Assembly (NCBI RefSeq): GCF_044324875.1 | Contig: NZ_CP172185.1 | Reading direction: 5' to 3' (one strand) | Length of the DNA stretch: 64,000 nucleotides | Source: Escherichia coli | Lineage (GTDB): Bacteria > Pseudomonadota > Gammaproteobacteria > Enterobacterales > Enterobacteriaceae | Program-made: the position numbers and the translations under genes | Notes under the pieces: generated by a model | What the model was told of the DNA's origin: nothing | The model's database searches: none | What the model saw: only the letters and a program-made list of their open reading frames with translations | Shown: piece after piece, positions 3,645-20,287 of the stretch | How the letters are laid out: every line of letters starts with the position of its first letter | How positions within the stretch are numbered: the first letter of the stretch is position 1

Positions 3645-4764
3645 CAGCCAGTACGACCTCCCAGCTTTCTACCCAATTAATGGCCATTTTTTGGTCGAGA
3701 GAGTGGTCAAAGTCAGGATCGTCTTCATTGAAGAATTCGCTGACCATCACCATCTTGCCATTTTCCAGTTCAACAACCGACTCCAGCGTCATGCCTTTGT
3801 AGTTACGCTCGCGAACGTAACCAATCAGCCCTTCAGCGTGGTTGTCGTCGTTAATCTCTTCAACACGTAAGTCTTCCGGGCGCAGCAGAACATGCAGTTT
3901 TTGCCCCGGTTCAACGGCGAAGTTAACGTAGATATTACATTCGCGGCCTTCAACGTTGGCGCGTACGCGCTGCTCGTCTAGACGTTCGATGACAGTGGCG
4001 TTAAACATATTGATTTCGCCAATAAACCCAGCAACAAACAGGTTTTTCGGCTCTTCATAGATTTCACGCGGCGTGCCGTCTTGCTCAATGCGACCATCGC
4101 GCATCACCACAATCCTGTCCGACATGGTGAGTGCTTCTTCCTGGTCGTGAGTCACGAAGACGAATGTAATGCCAAGCTTACGCTGTAACGCTTTCAGCTC
4201 GTTCTGCATTTGCTTGCGCAGTTTGTAATCCAGCGCTGAGAGCGACTCATCCAGCAACAACAGACGAGGCTTGTTAACCACTGCGCGGGCAATGGCGACG
4301 CGTTGCTGTTGACCACCAGAGAGCTGATGCGGTTTGCGTTGAGCGAAGGTTTCCAGCTGCACCATCCGCAGGGCTTCCATCACGCGGGGCGTAATTTCAG
4401 CAGCGGGGGTTTTTTGCATGCGTAACCCAAAGGCCACATTTTCGAACACGGTCATGTGGGGGAAAAGTGCGTAGCTTTGGAAAACAGTGTTCACATAGCG
4501 GTTTTCCGCCGGAACGTGGGTGATGTCCTCGTTATCCAGCATGATGCGTCCGGAATCAACAGTTTCCAGACCTGCAATCAGGCGAAGAACGGTTGTTTTA
4601 CCGCAGCCAGAAGGGCCAAGCAGCGTGAGGAACTCGCCATTGTTGATAGTCAGATCCAGCTGGGGAATGACCTCTTTACCATCAAAGCATTTGCGAATTC
4701 CCGCCAATTGCACCAGCGGTGAAAGCGAACTCGGTTGTTTATTCAATTTTTTACTCTGTCCCAT
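3628..4764 (-). CDS. potA: spermidine/putrescine ABC transporter ATPase PotA
   Basis: 378 aa with Walker [24 protein letters not shown] and a C-terminal TOBE domain. The sequence is recognised as PotA. Confidence 0.92.
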
Positions 4765-5013
4765 GTAAACGCAACGGATGGCTTACCGATGCGGGGTTTG
4801 TGGTTAACCACCTTGGTGACTCTTAATGAGGGCGGTAATTCTACGGCAAACCGCTTGAATCGCCAATCTTTGTTGTGAATTACTGGCTTAGCTTTATATT
4901 CATTAAGGTAATGCTGATAAATATTCCCGCTTGCAGGGGTAAAAGTGACCTGACGCAATATTTGTCTTTTCTTGCTTCTTAATAATGTTGTCACAAAAAG
5001 TGAGGGTGACTAC

Positions 5014-6288: not shown

Positions 6289-7410
6289 TTACCCTTCGAA
6301 GAACCAATACCCGCTATTGACCAGCGCCGCGAGCATCGCGAGGAATGACGGATCTTCCAGCGCATCGCCAAAATTCTCCGCAGTCAGCGCAATGTTGCTG
6401 GCGAGTGCATCCAGTGCCGGACGGTGCGGGGAATCGATCTTCTCACCATTGGCATACACGTCGTCGCCAATGCGCAATACGCGCAGACCACCCAGACGCA
6501 CCAGCACTTCACCTTGTTTCAGCGCATCGTAGATTTCATCCGGCTGATAAGGCGGCTCTGGCGGCGCGATATCCAGTTCATGGCGTGACTGGGATATAAA
6601 CTCCCCAAACCATTGCTTAAAGTGTTCCGGCTGGTTGATCAATTCGAGCATCATCTCACGCAGTTTATCCATCTCTTGCGGCAGAACATCCGCAGGATGA
6701 GCGCGAGGTGAAACATCAGGATCGCTGTAGTAGTTGCCGCCCAGTTCACGTTGCAGCACATAATCGGCAAATCCGCTAATCAGTTCCCGCGTATTTGGTG
6801 CGCGAAAACCGACGGAATAGTTCATCGCATTTTCCAGCGCGTAGCCTTCATGGGGGAATCCTGGCGGAATATAAAGAATATCGCCTGGCTCCAGTTCTTC
6901 ATCAATGATGGCTTCGAACGGATCAACCTGTAACAGATCCGGGTGCGGGCAGTGCTGTTTCATTTGCAGCTTTTCGCCCACTCGCCAGCGACGACGTCCG
7001 GTACCCTGAATGATAAACACGTCGTACTGATCGAGATGCGGGCCGACGCCGCCGCCAGGTACAGAAAAAGAGATCATCAGATCATCAATACGCCAGTCCG
7101 GTAGTTCACGGAACGGTCGCATCAGCGCGGCGGTCGGCTCATGCCAGTGGTTCACTGCCTGCACTAACAATGACCAGTTAGTTTCACCGAGATGATCGTA
7201 GCTTTCGAACGGGCCGTGGCTGACCTGCCATTTGCCATCCTGGTGGCTGACCAGTCGACTGTCGACTTCGCTTTCCATCGCCAGACCCGCCAACTCGTCT
7301 GGAGAGATCGGGTCAATAAAATTATTAAAGCCGCGTTTTAACACCACCGGACGTTTCTGCCAGTGACGTTCAAGAAAATCGGGCCAGTTAAGAGTGAGTT
7401 GGTATTCCAT
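6289..7410 (-). CDS. roxA: ribosomal protein uL16 arginine hydroxylase RoxA/YcfD (cupin-4 JmjC-like)
   Basis: 373 aa starting MEYQLTLNWPDFLERHW, with an HxD...H Fe(II)-binding pattern. Synteny is with pepT and phoQ. Confidence 0.9.
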   Translation of the reverse strand: MEYQLTLNWPDFLERHWQKRPVVLKRGFNNFIDPISPDELAGLAMESEVDSRLVSHQDGKWQVSHGPFESYDHLGETNWSLLVQAVNHWHEPTAALMRPFRELPDWRIDDLMISFSVPGGGVGPHLDQYDVFIIQGTGRRRWRVGEKLQMKQHCPHPDLLQVDPFEAIIDEELEPGDILYIPPGFPHEGYALENAMNYSVGFRAPNTRELISGFADYVLQRELGGNYYSDPDVSPRAHPADVLPQEMDKLREMMLELINQPEHFKQWFGEFISQSRHELDIAPPEPPYQPDEIYDALKQGEVLVRLGGLRVLRIGDDVYANGEKIDSPHRPALDALASNIALTAENFGDALEDPSFLAMLAALVNSGYWFFEG

Positions 7411-7611
7411 GTTAAGCATCCACAGGCTGGTATCTGCAACCGATTATAACGGATGCTTAACGTAATGCGTGAAGTATGGGCATACTTTATCAATTAGTGT
7501 TTTTTGCCGTTTCATAATGTTTCAGGTTGTGCATTATGTTTTTGATTATAAACAAATTTGTGATTTTTCTTGTTCCAGCTTGTTTCACGTTGTAGCCCTT
7601 TGTGCAACGAT

Positions 7612-7637
7612 CGGTGTAGTTAATGGTGTAGTTAATT
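7612..7637. repeat. attL core (26-bp direct repeat)
   Basis: Identical 26-mer at 18721-18746. The flanking 30 bp are weakly similar, including the motif ttgtt(t/c)cacgttgt. Confidence 0.7.
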
Positions 7638-8888
7638 GTGATGACCGGATTCAAAATTATGAGCAGAGCACTTAACAAGCTGAGCGATACACAGCTAAGG
7701 AAAATCAACGGCACACCCGCCCAAAAAACAGCCTTTCTTAATGACGGTGGAAACTTGAGCGTCAGGCATTCAACCAGCGGCCTTTTAACCTGGTATTTCA
7801 CTTACAGGGCCGGAACGGGAAGGGGGGCATCACCGGAACGCATTAAGCTGGGAAATTATCCTGATCTGAGCCTGAAATCAGCCAGGGAAAAAGCCGCCCA
7901 GTGTCGCGCATGGCTGGCTGAGGGGAAAAATCCACGTCATGAGATGAATTACACCGTACAGGAAGCGTTAAAGCCTGTAACGGTTGGCGATGCGCTCACC
8001 TACTGGCTTGAGTCGTACGCAAAGGAAAACCGTGTGGATTATGACCCACTGAAAAAGCGGCTAAATAATCACGTAATACAGCACATTGGCCCTATGCCGC
8101 TGGATAAATGCGAGCTACGGCACTGGCTGGCCTGTTTTGATCGGGTGGCAAAGCAAGCCCCTGTTTCCGCCGGGTTCCTGCTACAGACATGCAAACAGGC
8201 GCTTAAGTTCTGCCGGAAGCGGCGCTATGCAATCAGCAACGTTCTTGATGATATGAGTGTGGCTGACGTTGGGAAAAAACCGGATATAGGCGAACGTGTC
8301 TTAAGTACCAAAGAACTGGGCGAATTATTGCAGGCACTGGACAAAAAAATATTTTCCCCTTACTACGTCGCACTAATCCGCCTCCTGATTGTTTTCGGAT
8401 GCCGGACAGTAGAACTGAGGTTATCGGAGATCGGCGAGTGGGATTTTACCGAAATGCTCTGGACCGTTCCGAAGGAGCACAGCAAAACGAAGGTAGCCAT
8501 ATTCCGGCCCATACCGGAAGCGATACTGCCGTTCGTCACGCAGCTGATGGAGCAGAACAGGCACACGGGCTTATTGCTGGGGGAAGTGAAACAGGAAACC
8601 AGCGTGTCGCAGTACGGCAGATTAGTGCACAGGAGGCTTAAACACCCTCACTGGTCACTGCATGACATCCGGCGCACCTTTACAACGATGCTGAACGATT
8701 TAGGCGTGGATCCTCACGTCGTGGAGCAGCTTACAGGCCACCAGATGCCAGGAATGCAGCGAGTTTATAATCATTCCCGTTATCTGGATGCGAAACGCAA
8801 TGCGCTGGATATGTGGACGGAGCGGTTAGGGATACTGGCGGGAGCACATGAAAACGTAACCACGCTACCAGTAACCAGAAGAAAATAA
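7638..8888 (+). CDS. int: tyrosine site-specific integrase (P4/CP4-57-type)
   Basis: 416 aa. The C-terminal catalytic region reads ...HDIRRTFTTMLNDLGVDPHVVEQLTGHQ...VYNHSRYLD (R..HxxR..Y). It sits immediately inside attL. Confidence 0.85.
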   Translation: MMTGFKIMSRALNKLSDTQLRKINGTPAQKTAFLNDGGNLSVRHSTSGLLTWYFTYRAGTGRGASPERIKLGNYPDLSLKSAREKAAQCRAWLAEGKNPRHEMNYTVQEALKPVTVGDALTYWLESYAKENRVDYDPLKKRLNNHVIQHIGPMPLDKCELRHWLACFDRVAKQAPVSAGFLLQTCKQALKFCRKRRYAISNVLDDMSVADVGKKPDIGERVLSTKELGELLQALDKKIFSPYYVALIRLLIVFGCRTVELRLSEIGEWDFTEMLWTVPKEHSKTKVAIFRPIPEAILPFVTQLMEQNRHTGLLLGEVKQETSVSQYGRLVHRRLKHPHWSLHDIRRTFTTMLNDLGVDPHVVEQLTGHQMPGMQRVYNHSRYLDAKRNALDMWTERLGILAGAHENVTTLPVTRRK

Positions 8889-11347: not shown

Positions 11348-11635
11348 ATGAAAAATAAAAATTCTGGCGTTAATGCCAGCGGCCCCGCTCGTCCTGAAAT
11401 CCGTCCCGGCGATATTTTCCGTGATAACTACGGCGGCACGGTAATGATTAAGGGCGTGGAAGAACGGCGCGTAACCTACCGCCGTGATGGCTACGAATAT
11501 GACTGCGTTATGCCTGTTTATCAGTTCCGGCGTGATTTCACGCTGGTGGGCCATCGTAAAGCCGTTAATCAGAAACGTGCTGCAAGTTATATCCGCAAAA
11601 TCCGTGAAATGCTGGTCGCAGGGGGTAAGAAATGA
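11348..11635 (+). CDS. hypothetical protein
   Basis: 95-aa ORF overlapping the rep start (ATGA). Confidence 0.45.
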   Translation: MKNKNSGVNASGPARPEIRPGDIFRDNYGGTVMIKGVEERRVTYRRDGYEYDCVMPVYQFRRDFTLVGHRKAVNQKRAASYIRKIREMLVAGGKK

Positions 11636-13038
11636 AACTTGCACCGAACGTAAAACTGTTACCGAAAGATAAACACACTGAGGCGGTTATTTTTGCGGGT
11701 GATAATGCTCACTCCTTTGCAGAACATTACATGATTGCACAGGCCAAAAAAGCAGGCGATCCCATCCCTCCGGTTTACCTGGGCCGTTATCAGTTAAGCG
11801 AACTGGACAACTTACAGATTGTTGATGAAGGACGATACAGGGCAAAGGTCATACGCGCCGGAAACCTGGACGATATGCAGATGCTGACCATTGCCACAAA
11901 ACTGGCGATCGCCGGAGTCCAGGAGGCGCGCCTACTTTCTGAAAATTTCGAACTGCTGGAGGACTGGAGCGACCAGCTACCACGACTACGGGAAACATGG
12001 GAGAGAGGGGAAAGCCTGGTCATGAATGGCGGAAAGCGAAAAATCACACTTCCCATCTCATGGGGTTCTGAGGGATTCGATGCGCAGCAAAGCTACGTCA
12101 TTAAGGGGCTTATTCCGGCTGAGTCATTATGCAGCACCTACGGGGCCAGCGGTTCTTATAAATCGTTCCTCGCCATTTCCTGGTCGTGCCATGTTGCCAC
12201 AGGTATGGCATGGGGAGGCCGCAGGGTAAGTAAGGGTGCGGTTATCTATATCGCTGGCGAAGGCAGCATGGGCGTAAAACGCCGCGTTAAGGCGTGGGAG
12301 ATAACCCACGACAAGGTGGTTACAGATTTGTGCATCATTAACGCGCCTGTTTTCCCTGCATCGCCTGACTATGTGGAGCAGGTTATCAGGACTGCCGGAC
12401 TTGTTAAGAGCAGAACGGGCGAAAATGTGCGGCTGATTGTGATCGACACGCTGGCCCGTTGCTTTGGTGGGAATGATGAAAATGATTCCCGTGATATGGG
12501 CGCATTTATCCAGGGGTGTGACGCGATAAAGCAGGCCACAGGGGCCACGGTGCTGGTGGTTCACCATTCCGGCAAGGATGAAACAAAGGGGGCGCGTGGT
12601 TCCAGTGCATTCCGTGCCGCGCTTGATGCAGAGTACCGAATCAGCCGCGAAAATTCAGACGTTACAGCACTGGTCGCAGCATGTACGAAGATGAAGGACG
12701 CAGAGGAGCCAAAAGAGAGCGCATACGACCTTAAAAGCGTGGAGGTGTTCACCGATACAGATGGCGAAGAAATTGTGTCCATGGTGGTGATTGACGTTCC
12801 CCGCGCCCCTGCTGAACTGGAGCGCATCGAGGAGGCAGGCAACAAGACGGAAAACCATACCGCGCTATGGGGGTGCATCCGTTCACGCACACAGAACGGC
12901 GACAAGTGCACGATCCCGCTGTTACGTGATGACATGAAACGGCTTGGGTATGACGTGAAAAATATGCGGCGATGGTTAGCCAAACTGGAAAAAGACGCCG
13001 TGATTTACATTGATGGTGATGATGTAGGACCACTGTAA
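11632..13038 (+). CDS. replication initiator / RepA-like RecA-fold NTPase (AAA_25-type)
   Basis: 468 aa with Walker A YGASGSYKSFLAI, Walker B LIVIDTLARCF and VLVVHHSGKDETKG. These are typical of RepA/AAA_25 helicase-like satellite and plasmid replication proteins. The iteron array follows immediately. Confidence 0.75.
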   Translation: MKLAPNVKLLPKDKHTEAVIFAGDNAHSFAEHYMIAQAKKAGDPIPPVYLGRYQLSELDNLQIVDEGRYRAKVIRAGNLDDMQMLTIATKLAIAGVQEARLLSENFELLEDWSDQLPRLRETWERGESLVMNGGKRKITLPISWGSEGFDAQQSYVIKGLIPAESLCSTYGASGSYKSFLAISWSCHVATGMAWGGRRVSKGAVIYIAGEGSMGVKRRVKAWEITHDKVVTDLCIINAPVFPASPDYVEQVIRTAGLVKSRTGENVRLIVIDTLARCFGGNDENDSRDMGAFIQGCDAIKQATGATVLVVHHSGKDETKGARGSSAFRAALDAEYRISRENSDVTALVAACTKMKDAEEPKESAYDLKSVEVFTDTDGEEIVSMVVIDVPRAPAELERIEEAGNKTENHTALWGCIRSRTQNGDKCTIPLLRDDMKRLGYDVKNMRRWLAKLEKDAVIYIDGDDVGPL

Positions 13039-14784: not shown

Positions 14785-14991
14785 ATGGCAGAAGAGAAAA
14801 AAGGCGGGGTGACGGTCTACATAAGCCCCGACATCGTGGAGGCGCTCAAGGAACGCCACCAGCAGAATGTAAAAGCAGGCATTGCGGCAGGACTTGATCC
14901 GCTGGCGATGGTTGAGCCGTCAACAGGCTGGCAGGTGCGTACCTATTTACGTGCGGCGCTGGGTATCAATCAGGTTCACGGAGGTGAATAA
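14785..14991 (+). CDS. hypothetical small protein, first gene of the capsid operon
   Basis: 68-aa ORF with an RBS (aagaggaa). Its stop overlaps the MCP start (TAATG). It follows an AT-rich promoter-like region (14630-14784) that contains the partial palindrome ttgcaacat...ttgttgcgcaaaatgcaa. Confidence 0.4.
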   Translation: MAEEKKGGVTVYISPDIVEALKERHQQNVKAGIAAGLDPLAMVEPSTGWQVRTYLRAALGINQVHGGE

Positions 14992-16046
14992 TGACAGGCA
15001 AAGCAAAGGCACTTACAACTAACCAGCTTTTCGCGTACCTGAATCGCGGGGATATTTCGGAATATAAATTTAGTCCGCTGTTTACCACGCTGTTTTTCCC
15101 GAACGTGGCGACCTTCAACACCCAAAACATCATGCTGGACACCCTGGACATTGAAGAGGTTACGATGTCAGCGTTCTGTTCTCCTATGGTGGGTAGTCAG
15201 GTCCAGCGCGATAAAGGGTACGAAACCAGCACGATTAAACCAGGCTACATGAAGCCAAAGCACGAAATCGATCCAACAAAGACCATCATGCGCATGGATG
15301 GAGAAGATCCGGCACAGCTTAACGATCCAACTTACCGCCGTATGCGCCTGATTACTGGCAACATGCGCCGCCAGATAAACGCCATTAAGGCGCGCGTGGA
15401 ATGGCTGGCGGTGAATGCGGTAACGACCGGAAAAAACATCATTGAGGGCGAAGGCATAGAACGCTATGAAATCGACTGGAAAATACCGGAAAACTGCATC
15501 ATACAGCAGGCCAGTGGTAAAAAATGGTCCCAGCAGGATAAAGACATGCACGACCCAATCTATGACATCGAGCTTTATGCTGATCAGGCAGGTTGCCCCG
15601 CCAACGTCATGATTATGGGCGGTGAGGTATGGCGCACATTACGCAGCTTTAAAAAATTCCGTGAACTGTACGATCTTTCCCGTGGATCAGAATCCGCCGC
15701 CGAGCTGGCCTGTAAAAACCTGGGCGAAGTGGTGAGCTTTAAAGGCTATCTTGGTGATCTGGCCCTTATCGTCTATTCCGGCAAATACACTGACAGCGAC
15801 GGGACCGAAAAATATTTCCTTGAGCCTGATTTGCTGGTCCTGGGTAACACCAACAATAAAGGGCTGGTGGCATATGGTGCGATTATGGATCAGGAAGCGG
15901 TAAGAACGGGCGCAACGCAAAACATGTACTACCCGAAAAACTGGATTGAGGACGGCGATCCGGCGATTGAGTACGTGCAGACGCACAGCGCACCGCAGCC
16001 TGTACCGGCAGATATTCGCAAATTTGTTACCGTCAAAATTGCTTAA
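14991..16046 (+). CDS. major capsid protein, lambda gpE family
   Basis: 351 aa, alignable over its full length with lambda gpE. Shared blocks include F.PLF..LFF, KPGYMKPKHEIDP (lambda KPGYVKPKHEVNP), EDPAQLNDPTYRRMR (lambda EDPQNLADPAYRRRR), YSGKY, YPKNW..GDPA and SAP. Confidence 0.85.
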   Translation: MTGKAKALTTNQLFAYLNRGDISEYKFSPLFTTLFFPNVATFNTQNIMLDTLDIEEVTMSAFCSPMVGSQVQRDKGYETSTIKPGYMKPKHEIDPTKTIMRMDGEDPAQLNDPTYRRMRLITGNMRRQINAIKARVEWLAVNAVTTGKNIIEGEGIERYEIDWKIPENCIIQQASGKKWSQQDKDMHDPIYDIELYADQAGCPANVMIMGGEVWRTLRSFKKFRELYDLSRGSESAAELACKNLGEVVSFKGYLGDLALIVYSGKYTDSDGTEKYFLEPDLLVLGNTNNKGLVAYGAIMDQEAVRTGATQNMYYPKNWIEDGDPAIEYVQTHSAPQPVPADIRKFVTVKIA

Positions 16047-16057
16047 CGGGGGATTCT

Positions 16058-16393
16058 ATGGACGCTCCATACATTGAGTTATTTTCAGGCAGCCAACAGG
16101 TATCCACGACGCTGGTACATTTTGCCGCTGATGCTGGCGTTATTCAGGAATTTACCCCGCTGATGCTGGCAGACAATGGCGAGTTTAAGCCGTGGGATGG
16201 TAAGGAATCTGGCAAGGCTGTTTATCTGACCTCGTACCCTGTGGACACGTCAAAGCAGAAATCAGCACAGTGTTACAAGACGGGGATATTCAATATTGCC
16301 GCCGTTAACTGGCCTGACAGCGTCGACACCGATGCGAAAAAATGCGCCGCCTTTGCGGGTTCCGGCGTATCCGTTCAGCCGCTGGCCCGATAA
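16058..16393 (+). CDS. head decoration protein, lambda gpD-like
   Basis: 111 aa, the same size as gpD. ...TPLMLADNGEFKPWDG... resembles lambda TPLMLDTSSRKLVAWDG. ...YKTGIFNIAAVNWPDSVDTDAKKCAAFAGSGVSV resembles lambda [35 protein letters not shown]. Confidence 0.7.
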   Translation: MDAPYIELFSGSQQVSTTLVHFAADAGVIQEFTPLMLADNGEFKPWDGKESGKAVYLTSYPVDTSKQKSAQCYKTGIFNIAAVNWPDSVDTDAKKCAAFAGSGVSVQPLAR

Positions 16394-16460
16394 GCAGGGG
16401 GAACGATGGCACAAACCAGGGCGATGACGGCGACATCTATCGCATACTGAAAACCATCTG

Positions 16461-16493
16461 AGACAAGGCCGGAGAAATCCGGCTTTTTTTGCG
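16461..16493 (+). terminator. rho-independent terminator after the capsid genes
   Basis: gacaaggccggagaaatccggctttttttgcgg. Confidence 0.6.
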
Positions 16494-16521
16494 GGTCCTT
16501 TCCGGCATGTGGACCCGTTAC

Positions 16522-16690
16522 GGGGCGTCGACCTCGCACGTTTTCGCTATTTATGAAAATTTTCCGGGAAAAAGCATGTCAGTTCTTCTTGTTATTAACA
16601 TATTGTTTTTAAAGAAATAACTATCAAGAAAGAAACGACATCATAATGATGAAAAATCTGTTTTTTTTGGCATTTCATGTCGTAACTGAT
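16522..16690. other. lambda-type cos site: cosN (cohesive-end sequence) plus cosB-like R3/I/R2/R1 sites upstream of the Nu1 homologue
   Basis: ggggcgtcgacctcgcacgttttcgctatttatgaaaattttccgg is near-identical to the lambda left end GGGCGGCGACCTCGCGGGTTTTCGCTATTTATGAAAATTTTCCGG. Downstream lie gttcttcttgttattaac (R3-like), aagaaagaaacgacatc (R2-like) and catgtcgtaactg (R1-like), separated by A/T-rich spacers. Confidence 0.7.
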
Positions 16691-16710
16691 TTTTGATAAG
16701 GAATTGCTGA

Positions 16711-17295
16711 ATGAATGTTAATAAAAAGAGGCTTGCCGAAATTTTTAACGTGGACCCGCGGACGATTGAACGCTGGCAGTCACAGGGGCTTCCTTGCGTC
16801 TCCAAAGGCAGTAAGGGCATTGAATCTGTATTTGATACTGCCATGGCAATTCAGTGGTATGCGCGGAGGGAAACTGATATCGAAAACGAAAAGCTCCGCA
16901 AAGAACTGGACGATTTGCGTGCGGCAGCGGAGTCAGATTTACAACCCGGCACCATTGACTATGAACGCTATCGGCTCACAAAAGCGCAGGCAGATGCGCA
17001 GGAACTTAAAAACGAGCGCGATCGCGGTGACGTGATTGATACAGAGTTTTGCATGTACGCGCTTTCAAAACTGGCGAGTCAGATTTCATCAATCATGGAC
17101 AGCCTCCCGCTTACTATGCAAAGGAGCTTCCCACAGATGACCCCCGCCATGCTGGATGGCCTGAAAAAAGAAGTTGTCAGAGCCTGTAACGCATGCACAA
17201 AACTTGATGAAAACATCCCGCGAATGCTGTCCGATTATCTGATGGAAACTACCGGAAATGTGCCTGATAAGTTTCAGCCGGATAAAGACAAGTAA
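16711..17295 (+). CDS. terminase small subunit, lambda Nu1 family
   Basis: [30 protein letters not shown]...[48 protein letters not shown]... closely parallels lambda Nu1 (MEVNKKQLADIFGASIRTIQNWQEQGMPV...[48 protein letters not shown]). A C-terminal segment like the gpA-interacting region is present. Confidence 0.85.
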
Positions 17296-17554
17296 CGTAG
17301 TGCACAATGACCGAAGCCAGTTTACTGACTGGCTTTCAGCGTTGCGCTGGTGGGCGTTATGCGTCAGTGATAAACGTCTCCAATATTACTGATATTCGAC
17401 ATCCCCACCTCTCCACACCAGCTCGAATATCATTTTTCTCATTAAAAACAGGACATTAAAAACTGGTCAGATGTCCCATAAAAAGCCAAATGGGACAGGT
17501 CAAAAGCTTTTTTTGCAGTAATTTTCAATAGGTTACTTGATGTGGTGGTGTCCC

Positions 17555-17935
17555 ATGAAAATTCAAAAATCAGCCGTTTTCCGCGATGCTCCCGCCCCGT
17601 GGCAGGGCACCCCACAAGGAGGACCCGCCATCACTATGGAGGACATGACCATGACCGAGACCGAAGCGCTCGGGATAATCCGCAGTATTACCGGAATCAG
17701 CCAGCAGGCTGGCGAACAGGAGGCCACGCAGCCGGACAGCGTGATCGCCGAAAATTACGTGCGTGTTGTTGCTGATGTAATGCGCCGTGATGGTATTGAG
17801 CTTAACGGCGTGGATATGCGCGACATACGAATCAGAGTACTAGAGTTGCTGGCATACCGTCGACGCGTGGCGATGTATCAGGAGAGCGCGAAAAACACTT
17901 ATCAGTGGAAGAAGCCGGAGCGGTTACGGCGGTAA
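17555..17935 (+). CDS. hypothetical protein downstream of terS
   Basis: About 126 aa from MKIQKSAVF. It is Asp/Glu/Arg-rich with no recognisable motif, and occupies the slot where lambda would encode gpA. Confidence 0.4.
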   Translation: MKIQKSAVFRDAPAPWQGTPQGGPAITMEDMTMTETEALGIIRSITGISQQAGEQEATQPDSVIAENYVRVVADVMRRDGIELNGVDMRDIRIRVLELLAYRRRVAMYQESAKNTYQWKKPERLRR

Positions 17936-17939
17936 CTGG

Positions 17940-18265
17940 TTGATATTTTCGAAATTCGCCAGCGGCGAACATCGGGGAAACCAGCCTAACCAGTTGATTC
18001 TTTCGGAAACAGCCATTGGCGGAATCCGGCGCGGTAACTTGCTGATATTCCCGATAACGCAAAATTGCGCTGGCTACATCCCTCACATCTGAGGACTGAT
18101 AATGCGACATTGCGCTGGCTGGCAAAGTGCAAAATTGCACGATGGCCTAACCCATTGATTATTTCGAAAACCTGCAATGCAGGAAATCGGGGAAGTAAGC
18201 CTAAGCTATTGATTCTTTCGGAAACCTCAATTTGAGGAAGTCGGCGCGGTAACTCGCTGAACTTA
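17940..18265. repeat. two ~110-bp direct repeat units with conserved flanks and variable internal palindromes
   Basis: Unit 1 spans 17940-18050 and unit 2 spans 18152-18262. Each contains ttgat(a/t)tttcgaaa, then a perfect palindrome (ttcgccagcggcgaa or cctgcaatgcagg), then atcggggaa..agcctaa..ttgattctttcggaaac, then a second palindrome (gccattggc or cctcaatttgagg), then ..cggcgcggtaact.gctga. The spacer between units carries more palindromes (gcgcaaaattgcgc, cctcacatctgagg, gtgcaaaattgcac). Confidence 0.6.
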
Positions 18266-18720
18266 AAGCAAACCTCAAAATTGAGCTGGCTGAATAATCA
18301 TTATGATTACGCAGATGATTAAGGAATGACCGAAGGCGGAAATTCGCCTGTGGTTGATGGGGGAGTTGCAGATCTGCAACTCGACCATGAAACTACGGAA
18401 ACTACCCGTAGTTTGGGTAGTAAGAGTAACACCCAGATTTTGGGACTTACTCGTGATACCCAAATTTGGAGTATCGGTGGCAACCATAACGACTTTCGTT
18501 ACGGTTGATGCTTTTACCCCATTGGGGGAAAGGTATTACGATAATCATAACACCTACCGAACAGGTAAAGCCCACCAGCCTGATTGACATTTAACCGGAA
18601 AAAAAGCCAGGTAGCCCCGTTATGTGGATCCCCATATCGACAGCAACGCCCCCTTAAAATTACCCGCCTTTATATTTCTTGTGCCTATTTGTTCCACGTT
18701 GTTTCATACAGTGCGCCGAA

Positions 18721-18746
18721 CGGTGTAGTTAATGGTGTAGTTAATT
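18721..18746. repeat. attR core (26-bp direct repeat)
   Basis: Identical to 7612-7637. Confidence 0.7.
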
Positions 18747-18826
18747 TGCGATTTTTGGCACTTTTGTTTGTGTATATTTTTAATTAAATCAATACATTAA
18801 CTAATATCGGTGATAAAAGGGCATAT

Positions 18827-20287
18827 TTATTCATCTTTCGGCGCAGAATGCTGGCGACCAAAAATCACCTCCATCCGCGCACCGCCCAGCATGCTCTCTC
18901 CGGCGACGATTTTACCCTCATATTGCTCGGTGATTTCGCGGGCTACCGCCAGCCCTACACCTTGCCCAGGGCGTAAAGTATCAACCCGTTGACCACGGTC
19001 GAAAATGACCTCTCGCTTGCTTAATGGAATACCGGGGCCATCATCCTCGACCACAATATAGAGATGCTCGTCGGTTTGCCTTGCAGATATTTCGACAAAC
19101 TCGAGGCAATATTTACAGGCATTATCCAGCACGTTGCCCATCACCTCGACAAAATCGTTCTGCTCACCGACAAAGCTGATCTCTGGCGAAATATCGAGAG
19201 AGATATTGACCCCTTTGCGTTGATACACTTTGTTCAGCGCCGAGGTGAGATTGTCCAGCAGTGGGGCGACCGGATGTAGCTCGCGGCTAAGCAATGTCCC
19301 GCCGCGCATACTGGCACGATGCAGGTAGTAGCCAATTTGCTGTGAAATGCGACTGATTTGCTCCAGCATTACCGGCTCAGCATCACTGACGCTCATCTTC
19401 TCACTACGCAGAGAACGCAGCGTACTTTGCAGCACCGCCAGTGGCGTTTTCAGACTATGGGTCAGGTCGGTGAGCGTTGTACGATATTTGTCGTAACGTT
19501 CGCGTTCACTTTTTAACAATCGGTTCAGGTTTCGTACCAGACTGGTCAGTTCTCGCGTTGTGGCTGGATTGAGCAATTCGCGGTTATGTTCTTCCAGTTC
19601 GCGGACTTCTTTTGCCAGGGCTTCGATGGGGCGTAAACTCCACCTGGCGGCGACCCACAGCAGCGGGATCACTAACAGCAGATTGGCTGAGAGCACATAG
19701 ATAAACCAGCTCCAGACCATATAGGAACTTTTTAGCTCCACCGGAATGGTATCCACCACCACAATGGTCAACTTTGGCATCCGCGATGTTGCCGGGTAGA
19801 CGTTTACCGCCACCGAGTGGGTCATCTCCGCGTCGTCATCATCTTCCCGCACTTCCTGCAACTGTTGCTGTATCGAATGATCTCCACTCAGCAAGAGGCT
19901 GGTATCGTTAACATCCGCTTCAATTTCATGAAAACCATTCGATTTCAGCCAGTCAGGCTGGATCATCTTCATCAGCCAGGGCACGTCACGTTGCGCCCAT
20001 AAAAGCTGCCCGTTCTCATCATAAATTAGCGTCATAGTGGGGCTTTGCTTGTCGATATTTTCGGGTAACTCGACATGCAACTTATTGTTTTCCCACTTCG
20101 CAAGGGTATAGAACAGATTGCTCTCGCCACGTAACAGCCGAAACGTAGTTTTATCGAAACTGACGCTATAACCGATCAGCGCGACCATTCCGTAGGCAAG
20201 CGAAAGCACCAGTACAACCGCTGCCGTTGCCAATAGAAAACGTACCCGCAGCGAGAGCGGGAAAAAAAGACGCAGTAATTTTTTCAT
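18827..20287 (-). CDS. phoQ: sensor histidine kinase PhoQ
   Basis: 486 aa, recognised sequence. It has a periplasmic acidic patch, HAMP domain, H-box and HATPase. Confidence 0.95.

Follow-up and report, generated by a model that had tools for sequence, protein, structure and literature searches.

The window analysed here is a stretch of 64,000 nucleotides (nt) lying wholly within the chromosome of Escherichia coli (NCBI RefSeq assembly GCF_044324875.1, contig NZ_CP172185.1), and it carries an island between roxA (6289-7419, minus strand) on the left and phoQ (18827-20287, minus strand) on the right. Because the island combines an integrase, a RepA/AAA_25 helicase, capsid, decoration and terminase genes and a cosN-like site, we recognized it as a satellite resembling phage-inducible chromosomal islands (PICIs); judged by this gene content, it is an E. 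coli phage satellite of the PICI or capsid-forming PICI (cf-PICI) type. Its last open reading frame (ORF; 17537-17935, plus strand, with a likely start at the ATG at 17636) belongs to phrog_1561, a family of unknown function, and is followed by a non-coding stretch of ~890 bp that runs up to phoQ. This stretch holds the element that concerns us, a minus-strand array (17933-18285) of six complete modules in a row, accompanied by truncated ones, in which variable palindromes stand beside matches to the consensus of the integration host factor (IHF). The array reads in the sense direction of roi, a regulatory gene of lambdoid phages.

The original prediction, made from the sequence alone, had described duplicated units of ~110 bp with conserved flanks at 17940-18265. 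A direct repeat is indeed present in two copies of 113 nt (17933-18045 and 18148-18260; 215 from start to start), which are identical at 84 of 113 positions (74%; taking 0.3 as the background rate of matches, the binomial P is 3e-22). The blocks that had been named as common to both copies also recur, with TTGATWNTTTCGRAA occurring four times (17940, 17994, 18155 and 18209, against 0.14 expected) and GGCGCGGTAACTNNNTGA twice (against 0.11 expected). Likewise confirmed were the palindromes that keep their position between the two copies while varying in sequence, namely TTCGCCAGCGGCGAA (17955-17969) versus CCTGCAATGCAGG (18171-18183) and GCCATTGGC (18012-18020) versus CCTCAATTTGAGG (18225-18237), together with three palindromes in the spacer, CGCAAAATTGCG (18058-18069), CCTCACATCTGAGG (18081-18094) and GTGCAAAATTGCAC (18127-18140), to which a degenerate copy, TGCGACATTGCG (18103-18114), can be added. 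The unit itself needed revision: the ~110-nt repeats are real, but each 113-nt unit is made of two homologous sub-units of ~54 nt, and the basic unit is ~50 nt long and read on the minus strand. The feature also proved larger than 17940-18265, with a sixth module reaching 18285 and further palindromes continuing to ~18527. We counted perfect palindromes with arms of at least 5 and a gap of at most 3: 17930-18330 holds 8, where dinucleotide shuffles give 1.6 +/- 1.4, and 17930-18600 holds 13, where they give 2.3 +/- 1.5, a frequency five to six times that of the shuffled sequences.

Read along the minus strand, every module has the same layout: a perfect palindrome of 9-15 nt, a spacer of ~11 nt that is often TTTCGAAA-like, and a core of the form TCAR-NNNN-TTA. 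Module 1 (18250-18285) comes first in this direction, with palindrome CTCAATTTTGAG (18274-18285) and core TCAGCGAGTTA (18250-18260). The second and first halves of the right-hand repeat unit (unit 2) follow as module 2 (18202-18237; palindrome CCTCAAATTGAGG, 18225-18237; core TCAATAGCTTA, 18202-18212) and module 3 (18148-18183; palindrome CCTGCATTGCAGG, 18171-18183; core TCAATGGGTTA, 18148-18158). Beyond the spacer lie module 4 (18035-18069; palindrome CGCAATTTTGCG, 18058-18069; core TCAGCAAGTTA, 18035-18045) and then the second and first halves of unit 1, that is, module 5 (17987-18020; palindrome GCCAATGGC, 18012-18020; core TCAACTGGTTA, 17987-17997) and module 6 (17933-17969; palindrome TTCGCCGCTGGCGAA, 17955-17969; core TCAACCAGTTA, 17933-17943). 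Successive cores are 48, 54, 113, 48 and 54 bp apart, the 113-bp gap being filled by the truncated or degenerate minus-strand modules of 18081-18140 (CCTCACATCTGAGG, TGCGACATTGCG, GTGCAAAATTGCAC), which lack an IHF core. Among 41 distinct clusters of a core with a palindrome, drawn from the window and from other loci examined and including a few chance co-occurrences, the centre of the palindrome lies 17.5-19 bp upstream of the core, and within 17.5-18.5 bp except in the TTCCACAG type. To the right of the array, at 18294-18527, are further perfect palindromes, TAATCATTATGATTA and a group of five at 18363-18527 (GAGTTGCAGATCTGCAACTC, AAACTACCCGTAGTTT, CCAAATTTGG, TAACGACTTTCGTTA and CCCCATTGGGG). 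None of them has an IHF core, the five being without one at the distance seen in the modules, and a search of 18245-18830 for phage matches returned none. A 31-nt motif in this part, ATAATCATTATGATTACGCAGATGATTAAGG (18296-18326), recurs as ATGGTCATAATGACCACGCAGACCATCAAGG in three other satellite loci (L003, ~4462-4492; L004, ~4332-4362; L002, ~4892-4922); the palindrome within it differs there by a compensatory change, from AA/TT to GG/CC, and no phage match was found for the motif.

The IHF consensus in its strict form, WATCARNNNNTTR, is matched by five of the six cores (at 18214, 18160, 18047, 17999 and 17945 on the minus strand), and the sixth, TTCAGCGAGTTA, is one base off. In sequence these five have what typifies an IHF binding site, a match to WATCARNNNNTTR (such matches often follow an A/T-rich stretch). 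The clustering is marked, with 5 of the 18 WATCARNNNNTTR matches in the entire 64-kb window falling within the ~270 bp of the array (Poisson P 2e-8). To look at conservation, 25 distinct satellite copies of the core were gathered by a hidden Markov model seeded from the window's own modules, and not by a regular expression; TCA and GTTA are invariant in all 25. The NNNN positions drift (TAGC, TGGG, CTGG, CCAG, CAAG, CGAG and others), as opposed to the TAAC or CAAC of the phage genes described below.

All four sub-units of the 113-nt repeats match, in antisense orientation, the same ~40-48 nt, at the same codons, in different alleles of the lambdoid roi/rha family. The strongest case is module 2 (18197-18244), which in BLAST against phage genomes is identical at 45 of 48 positions (E 1e-10, antisense) to codons ~41-57 of roi in HK620, H-19B, HK75, Kapi1 and many Shiga toxin (Stx) phages, where the gene is annotated variously as DNA-binding protein Roi, anti-repressor or KilA. 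Module 3 matches CP-1639 roi, also antisense, at 87.8% over 41 nt, its palindrome being identical in the phage allele, where it encodes PALQV. Module 5 matches L14/'Ant' of phage phiP27 (antisense, 88.9% over 36 nt), and the closest allele to module 6 is an Stx2a-phage 'DNA-binding protein' gene of the Rha family (antisense, 81.4% over 43 nt), which has CGCCAATGGCG at the same codons. Relatives of module 4 in other satellites have a AGCGCAATTTTGCGCT form that, with its 3' flank, matches a phi191/Stx2a-phage regulator gene of the Rha family at 21 of 21 nt (E ~1 taken alone); with the gene sequence we could extend this match to ~41 nt by eye. Three further module types of satellites match VT2-Sakai roi, an Stx1-phage 'DNA-binding protein' gene with a Roi-like N-terminal sequence, and the phi191 Rha-family regulator. 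Taken singly, the weaker of these alignments would not persuade; the persuasive point, in our view, is that every one lies at the same codons in a single gene family. On this comparison, each module is best regarded as a copy, non-coding and 'improved', of a single site within the roi/rha (Phage_pRha) genes, with different modules corresponding to different alleles. HK620 Roi itself combines a Phage_pRha with an ANT/KilAC domain. The satellite modules thus share homology with the palindrome-plus-IHF segment of Phage_pRha genes, but do not lie, as the phage copies do, inside the coding sequence of their own regulator, and none of the island ORFs scanned matched the Phage_pRha domain.

A search with the N-terminal domain of Roi returned only near-identical genes of the HK620 type, and the diversity of alleles came from a scan with a degenerate DNA pattern. 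It yielded 39 distinct sequences around the conserved E-x-INNLG codons, including a few unrelated coding contexts and at least one that may be a non-coding satellite unit; most have a palindrome at the same codons. Between phage alleles the palindrome changes by compensatory substitutions that also alter the encoded amino acids: CCTCAAATTGAGG encodes PQIEV, CCTGCATTGCAGG PALQV, CCTCCAATGGAGG PPMEV, CGCCAATGGCG APMAN, GCCAATGGC PPMAV and TTTCCACAGACTGTGGAAA FPQTVE. The original prediction held that structure is kept while sequence varies and proposed covariation as a check, and both points were upheld across phage and satellite copies. In 34 such copies 95.1% of the cells are paired as against 70.7 +/- 2.1% in shuffles (reached by 0 of 500), a percentage that is inflated by pre-selection of the copies for at least 4 of 6 pairs, which leaves the compensatory changes unaffected. 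All 6 palindrome pairs show changes on both sides (41 cells), and the covariation score is 0.581; shuffles give 0.168, and slid controls do not exceed 0.128. Asymmetry between G-T and A-C wobbles in imperfect palindromes offered few informative cases, mostly at the central position. Given that the palindrome lies inside the Phage_pRha coding sequence, the site and the encoded protein segment are the same DNA. As a separate observation, the residues encoded by the palindrome appear, from a reading of the sequences, to lie after the predicted helix-turn-helix region (loci L058, L060-L062, L143-L262, L270, L271 and L275).

In the phages, the core AATCAAYAAYTTA, 11 nt downstream of the palindrome, is the only match to the IHF consensus in HK620 roi and its 3-kb surroundings, the arrangement there being CCTCAAATTGAGG, 11 nt, then AATCAATAACTTA. 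In HK022, roi has CTGCATTGCAG followed after 11 nt by AATCAATGATTTA, and no other IHF consensus occurs anywhere in the 3.9-kb P-Q interval. The rha genes of phi80 and P22 and roi of HK022 inhibit phage growth in IHF-deficient hosts, and rha is regulated by IHF. HK022 Roi is reported, in work dating from 1996, to bind a site within its own gene beside an IHF site, with IHF stabilizing that binding, and we take the palindrome and core of HK022 roi to be that pair of neighbouring sites for Roi and host IHF.

In the satellites the copies do not encode protein: compared with the gene they have a frame-breaking insertion of 4 nt, they contain stop codons, and minus-strand ORFs across the array contain no Pfam domain. 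Their palindromes are more perfect or longer than those of the phages, as in CCCCCAATGGGGG versus CCCCCAATGGTGG, the 15-nt TTCGCCGCTGGCGAA versus CGCCAATGGCG, and a 25-nt form, CGACCTCCTCAAATTGAGGAGGTCG. In two module types the core, too, is better than in the closest phage allele (AATCAACGGTTTA versus AAACAATCACTTG; TTCAGCGAGTTA or ATCAGCAAGTTA versus AACAATGAGTTA). This pattern is not that of decaying gene fragments and fits selection on a DNA site for IHF and a symmetric partner; selection for complementarity to phage mRNA would fit it less well.

Conservation in related islands had been put forward as decisive for the feature, and similar arrays do occur in satellites at five sites of the chromosome (phoQ, dinD, clpS, fis and hpt), always at the right end, after the last gene of the packaging module and before the chromosomal flank. 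The satellites that bear them have lambda-type, HK97-type or minimal head modules, and the cf-PICI adjoining phoQ in O157:H7 is among the carriers. Parts of 17930-18600 match 1,914 of 5,426 complete E. coli genomes, some of these matches being prophage roi genes; the array may be common. Scans of contigs with one genome per species gave no relatives with a protein query and 7 chance matches in unrelated metagenome-assembled genomes with the DNA pattern, and with these probes the array was thus not found outside Escherichia. A scan of viral contigs for three consecutive cores drew in mostly tandem repeats of unrelated viruses. In one unrelated viral contig (L281, 500-740), three IHF-consensus sites (AATCAAYGAGTTA) stand at intervals of exactly 48 bp ahead of five cgctatttgcaactt iterons, an arrangement that looks like a replication origin. 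In the clpS-site satellite (L004) the array is bracketed by a direct repeat of ~100 nt (~3868-3965 and ~4418-4510; ...cctgaatcatcattaccgtgatcaagggtatgtaaag.ccaccagcctgattaac.tttaaccggaaaaaaagccaggta), which hints that it can be moved or duplicated as a cassette. The dinD-site satellite (L002, 3000-6100) has a non-coding right end of ~3 kb with a Q-family antiterminator gene between groups of modules and several palindromes of the TACGAAAATTTCGTA type (three exact, one with the centre AAATTTT); this island also encodes a ProQ/FinO-family protein.

The anatomy of the array, its homology to phage genes, the compensatory evolution of its palindromes, the retention of the IHF consensus and its location in satellites are matters of direct observation. 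We tentatively propose, at a probability of roughly 45%, that it is a DNA-level multi-allele array for IHF and the Roi/Rha proteins of helper phages, acting as a decoy or a sensor. Under this proposal host IHF would bend each module, the phage present, be it a helper or a co-resident one, would supply the Roi/Rha protein that binds the cognate palindrome, and the satellite, especially once replicating, would become a trap or a sensor for phage regulators of several alleles. Of the options raised originally (protein-binding hairpins or cruciforms, or a structured RNA), protein binding is the best supported and a structured RNA lacks specific support; AlpA, the Arc-like repressor, PerC and Nu1, which had been suggested as the binding proteins, gained no support, and the comparisons point to IHF and phage Roi/Rha in their stead. 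We regard as doubtful a further step, in which the array would be a 'library', updated by recombination, of operator copies from the roi/rha genes of the phages encountered, tuned for tighter IHF-assisted binding so as to trap or detect their regulators. A corollary of that step would be that Phage_pRha genes carry a self-encoded operator, the palindrome of which co-evolves with the amino acids it encodes.

Several points weigh against the decoy or sensor proposal. The presumed recognition helix, RTIETL, is common to alleles whose palindromes differ (CCTCAAATTGAGG and TTTCCACAGACTGTGGAAA), and therefore a simple co-variation of helix-turn-helix and operator is not evident. For a number of palindromes, both within the array and outside it, there is no counterpart in phages. 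All arrays seen have one orientation relative to the satellite operon, which may reflect common descent and would suit a role as RNA as well. To these must be added the pre-selection of the 34 copies and the seeding of the core model mentioned above.

The orientation brings in the view that the array is a library of antisense RNA, in which plus-strand read-through from the late operon would produce a transcript complementary to several roi/rha mRNAs, with hairpin loops nucleating pairing and the resulting duplex silencing or cleaving the message. Followed in the direction of the satellite operon, the modules do run antisense to the phage genes, module 2 shares 45 of 48 positions with roi of the HK620 type with a perfect run of ~34 nt (counted by eye), each unit has the central hairpin typical of antisense RNAs, and one array covers several alleles. 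What is conserved, however, is the IHF consensus and not complementarity: NNNN differs from the phage TAAC or CAAC at 1-4 of its 4 positions, the other flanks have diverged (81-89% identity), and some palindromes are extended with sequence missing from the phage gene. Moreover, a terminator-like hairpin with a T-run stands at the entrance to the array (17921-17948; CGGTTACGGCGGTAACTG then GTTGATATTTT), where it overlaps both the stop codon that ends the last ORF and the first of the IHF cores, although a scan of the region found promoter and terminator counts no higher than chance, and there is no promoter-like site inside the array. We consider an antisense role decidedly unlikely. A structured non-coding RNA, or DNA cruciforms acting by shape alone, would be suggested by the compensatory changes in the stems and by strong folding z-scores, which bear out the folding check that had been proposed (-6.83 and -6.84 on the two strands). 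Yet the near-identity of these scores on both strands means that folding carries no strand information, and RNAalifold on six 106-nt units recovered only the local palindromes plus invariant U-G extensions. Rfam 15 has nothing at the gathering score in the region and, at E<=10, only weak sub-threshold matches to three unrelated families (the best being manA, 15.9 bits against a gathering score of 55.2). The predicted hairpins are local and of 4-7 bp, many with centres of 1-2 nt that could not form an RNA loop; arms of this length are too short for stable cruciform extrusion; and the adjoining conserved element is the consensus of a DNA-binding protein. We give action by shape alone hardly any credence.

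A different possibility, unlikely in our estimate, is that the array is an architectural element of IHF sites and palindromes with no phage-protein partner, comparable to the bacterial interspersed mosaic elements of type 1 (BIME-1), also called repetitive IHF-binding palindromic (RIP) elements. It would serve insulation, a block to read-through, supercoiling or DNA compaction and bending, perhaps with gyrase or a host or satellite protein. This agrees with the constant position at the 3' end of the last satellite operon, beside the chromosomal junction, with the dense and regularly spaced IHF-consensus cores, with the palindromes without phage counterparts that continue rightward, and with the occurrence of IHF-site arrays elsewhere, such as the three sites 48 bp apart beside iterons in the viral contig. 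It leaves unexplained, on the other hand, that the palindromes track specific roi/rha alleles, several to an array; the repetitive extragenic palindromic (REP) consensus is absent by eye, and no iterons adjoin the array. One might also view the modules as scars devoid of function, either debris of recombination between satellite and prophage roi/rha or the decayed remains of a duplicated ancestral rha in a region free of constraint. Their mosaic order, the truncated modules and the ~100-nt direct repeats that flank the array in one satellite are in keeping with such an origin, and homology of 40-50 bp is long enough for exchange by phage recombinases. But the same ~50-nt piece of the gene has been kept every time, palindromes and IHF cores are improved and not decayed while unconstrained positions drift, and the array is maintained at five integration sites in satellites of differing gene content, all of which makes scars improbable.

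Among known systems, the closest to the array is the intragenic Roi/IHF site of HK022 roi, along with the IHF-regulated rha of phi80 and P22, with which it shares homologous sequence and the same order of palindrome, spacer and IHF site. In the phages, though, the site is present in one copy, coding and in sense orientation, whereas the satellite has at least six tandem non-coding copies of different alleles, with improved palindromes and cores, and no recognisable Rha-domain protein. As to working principle, the nearest analogues are datA, with its DnaA boxes and essential IHF site, and the incA iterons of plasmids, IHF-assisted clusters of sites that sequester a regulator, as is proposed for the array. 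Their sites are identical and bind their own protein, unlike those of the array, which differ from one another and would bind helper-phage proteins. BIME-1/RIP elements (REP-IHF-REP) resemble it in joining palindromes to an IHF site and in their placement outside genes, where transcription units have their 3' ends. Assignment to the BIME/REP class was rejected: the palindromes of the array are variable, of 9-15 nt and in a single orientation to the cores, the conserved, alternating REP consensus of ~35-40 nt is not matched, and the array derives from a phage gene and is confined to satellites. At cosB (R3-I1-R2-R1) and in the attP arms of lambdoid phages, IHF likewise bends the DNA beside the sites of a sequence-specific protein (PMC9026076). 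The cosN-like site and the arm-type repeats of the island lie elsewhere, however, and arrays occur alike in satellites with lambda-type and HK97-type packaging.

The original exclusion of cos, att and ori was sustained. The cosN-like GGGCGTCGACCT is at 16523-16534 (plus strand), upstream of the Nu1-like gene, a repeat common to both island ends lies at 7612-7637 and 18721-18746, and a repeat scan of 17700-18500 found no iteron-like family. Integron attC sites were also discarded as a class: GCCTAAC (RYYYAAC) occurs in one orientation only, in the flank of the IHF core and with no inverted partner, and the integrase is of the phage type. Guide arrays of the CRISPR or TIGR kind and the repeats of type III antitoxins fit no better, given that the variable parts are palindromes, the repeats are 74% identical and the neighbours are head and packaging genes and phoQ. 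Nor is the array related to the small RNAs (sRNAs) Pas and Esr41, whose place in prophages is in the lysis and late regions.

Literature searches found no description of the array, and the papers on cf-PICIs and on cos make no mention of this region. Arrays of protein-binding sites are a known kind of element; the satellite-borne, multi-allele form is new as far as these searches go. Recognition and interference between satellites and helpers in Gram-negative bacteria are partly understood, the known means being protein-protein (Rpp-TerS, capsid redirection) or transcriptional (AlpA). If our proposal is true, a cis-acting array that copies a regulatory site of the helper from several alleles would add a layer of DNA decoy or sensing, and the Roi/Rha proteins, often present in lambdoid and Stx phages but of obscure function, would gain a concrete and testable role. 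Were the library view to hold as well, the array would be a multi-specific decoy between satellite and helper, a store of partner sequence with no described counterpart among satellites. The Phage_pRha genes themselves are of interest for an unusual constraint, a palindrome kept beside an IHF site by compensatory substitutions that change amino acids.

The remainder of the island is organized as follows. At its left end is an ordinary phage-type tyrosine integrase with an arm-binding domain (7638-8888), adjoined by one copy (7612-7637) of the 26-nt direct repeat CGGTGTAGTTAATGGTGTAGTTAATT, the other copy of which (18721-18746, plus strand) lies at least ~435 bp rightward of the array. The repeat is itself a tandem of two GGTGTAGTTAAT units, with similar sequence in loci L003 and L004, and is probably a set of arm-type recombination sites of the integrase marking the island end. 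The island encodes a DUF4222 protein, SSB and PerC besides the RepA/AAA_25 helicase (11632-13038), and its head module comprises a lambda E-like major capsid protein (14991-16046), a D-like decoration protein (16058-16393) and a Nu1-like small terminase (16711-17295). ORF and Pfam scans of the island detected no portal, protease or large terminase with this module (14991-17295). A partial head module of this composition, with genes for E-like capsid, D-like decoration protein and Nu1-like terminase plus a cosN-like site, is unusual in a PICI-like satellite.

The phrog_1561 ORF that precedes the array has its TAA stop codon inside the IHF core of module 6, and its family has an invariant C-terminus, ...YQWKKPERLRR, encoded in the region of 17921-17948. 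It has 943 homologues, and among the 120 matches listed every named one is from Escherichia or Shigella. Searches with 17636-17932 gave no Pfam match and no PDB sequence match, leaving phrog_1561 as its sole family, and the AlphaFold2 model is all-helical (predicted local distance difference test score, pLDDT, 70) with a best Foldseek E-value of 4.3, that is, no fold match. We set this protein aside as a candidate binder of the array, the profile, PDB and Foldseek comparisons being uninformative and the ORF missing or truncated in some array-bearing satellites. Elsewhere in the window, the C0299 sRNA at 49954-50032 (Rfam RF00119, 107.7 bits) is an ordinary chromosomal feature unrelated to the array.

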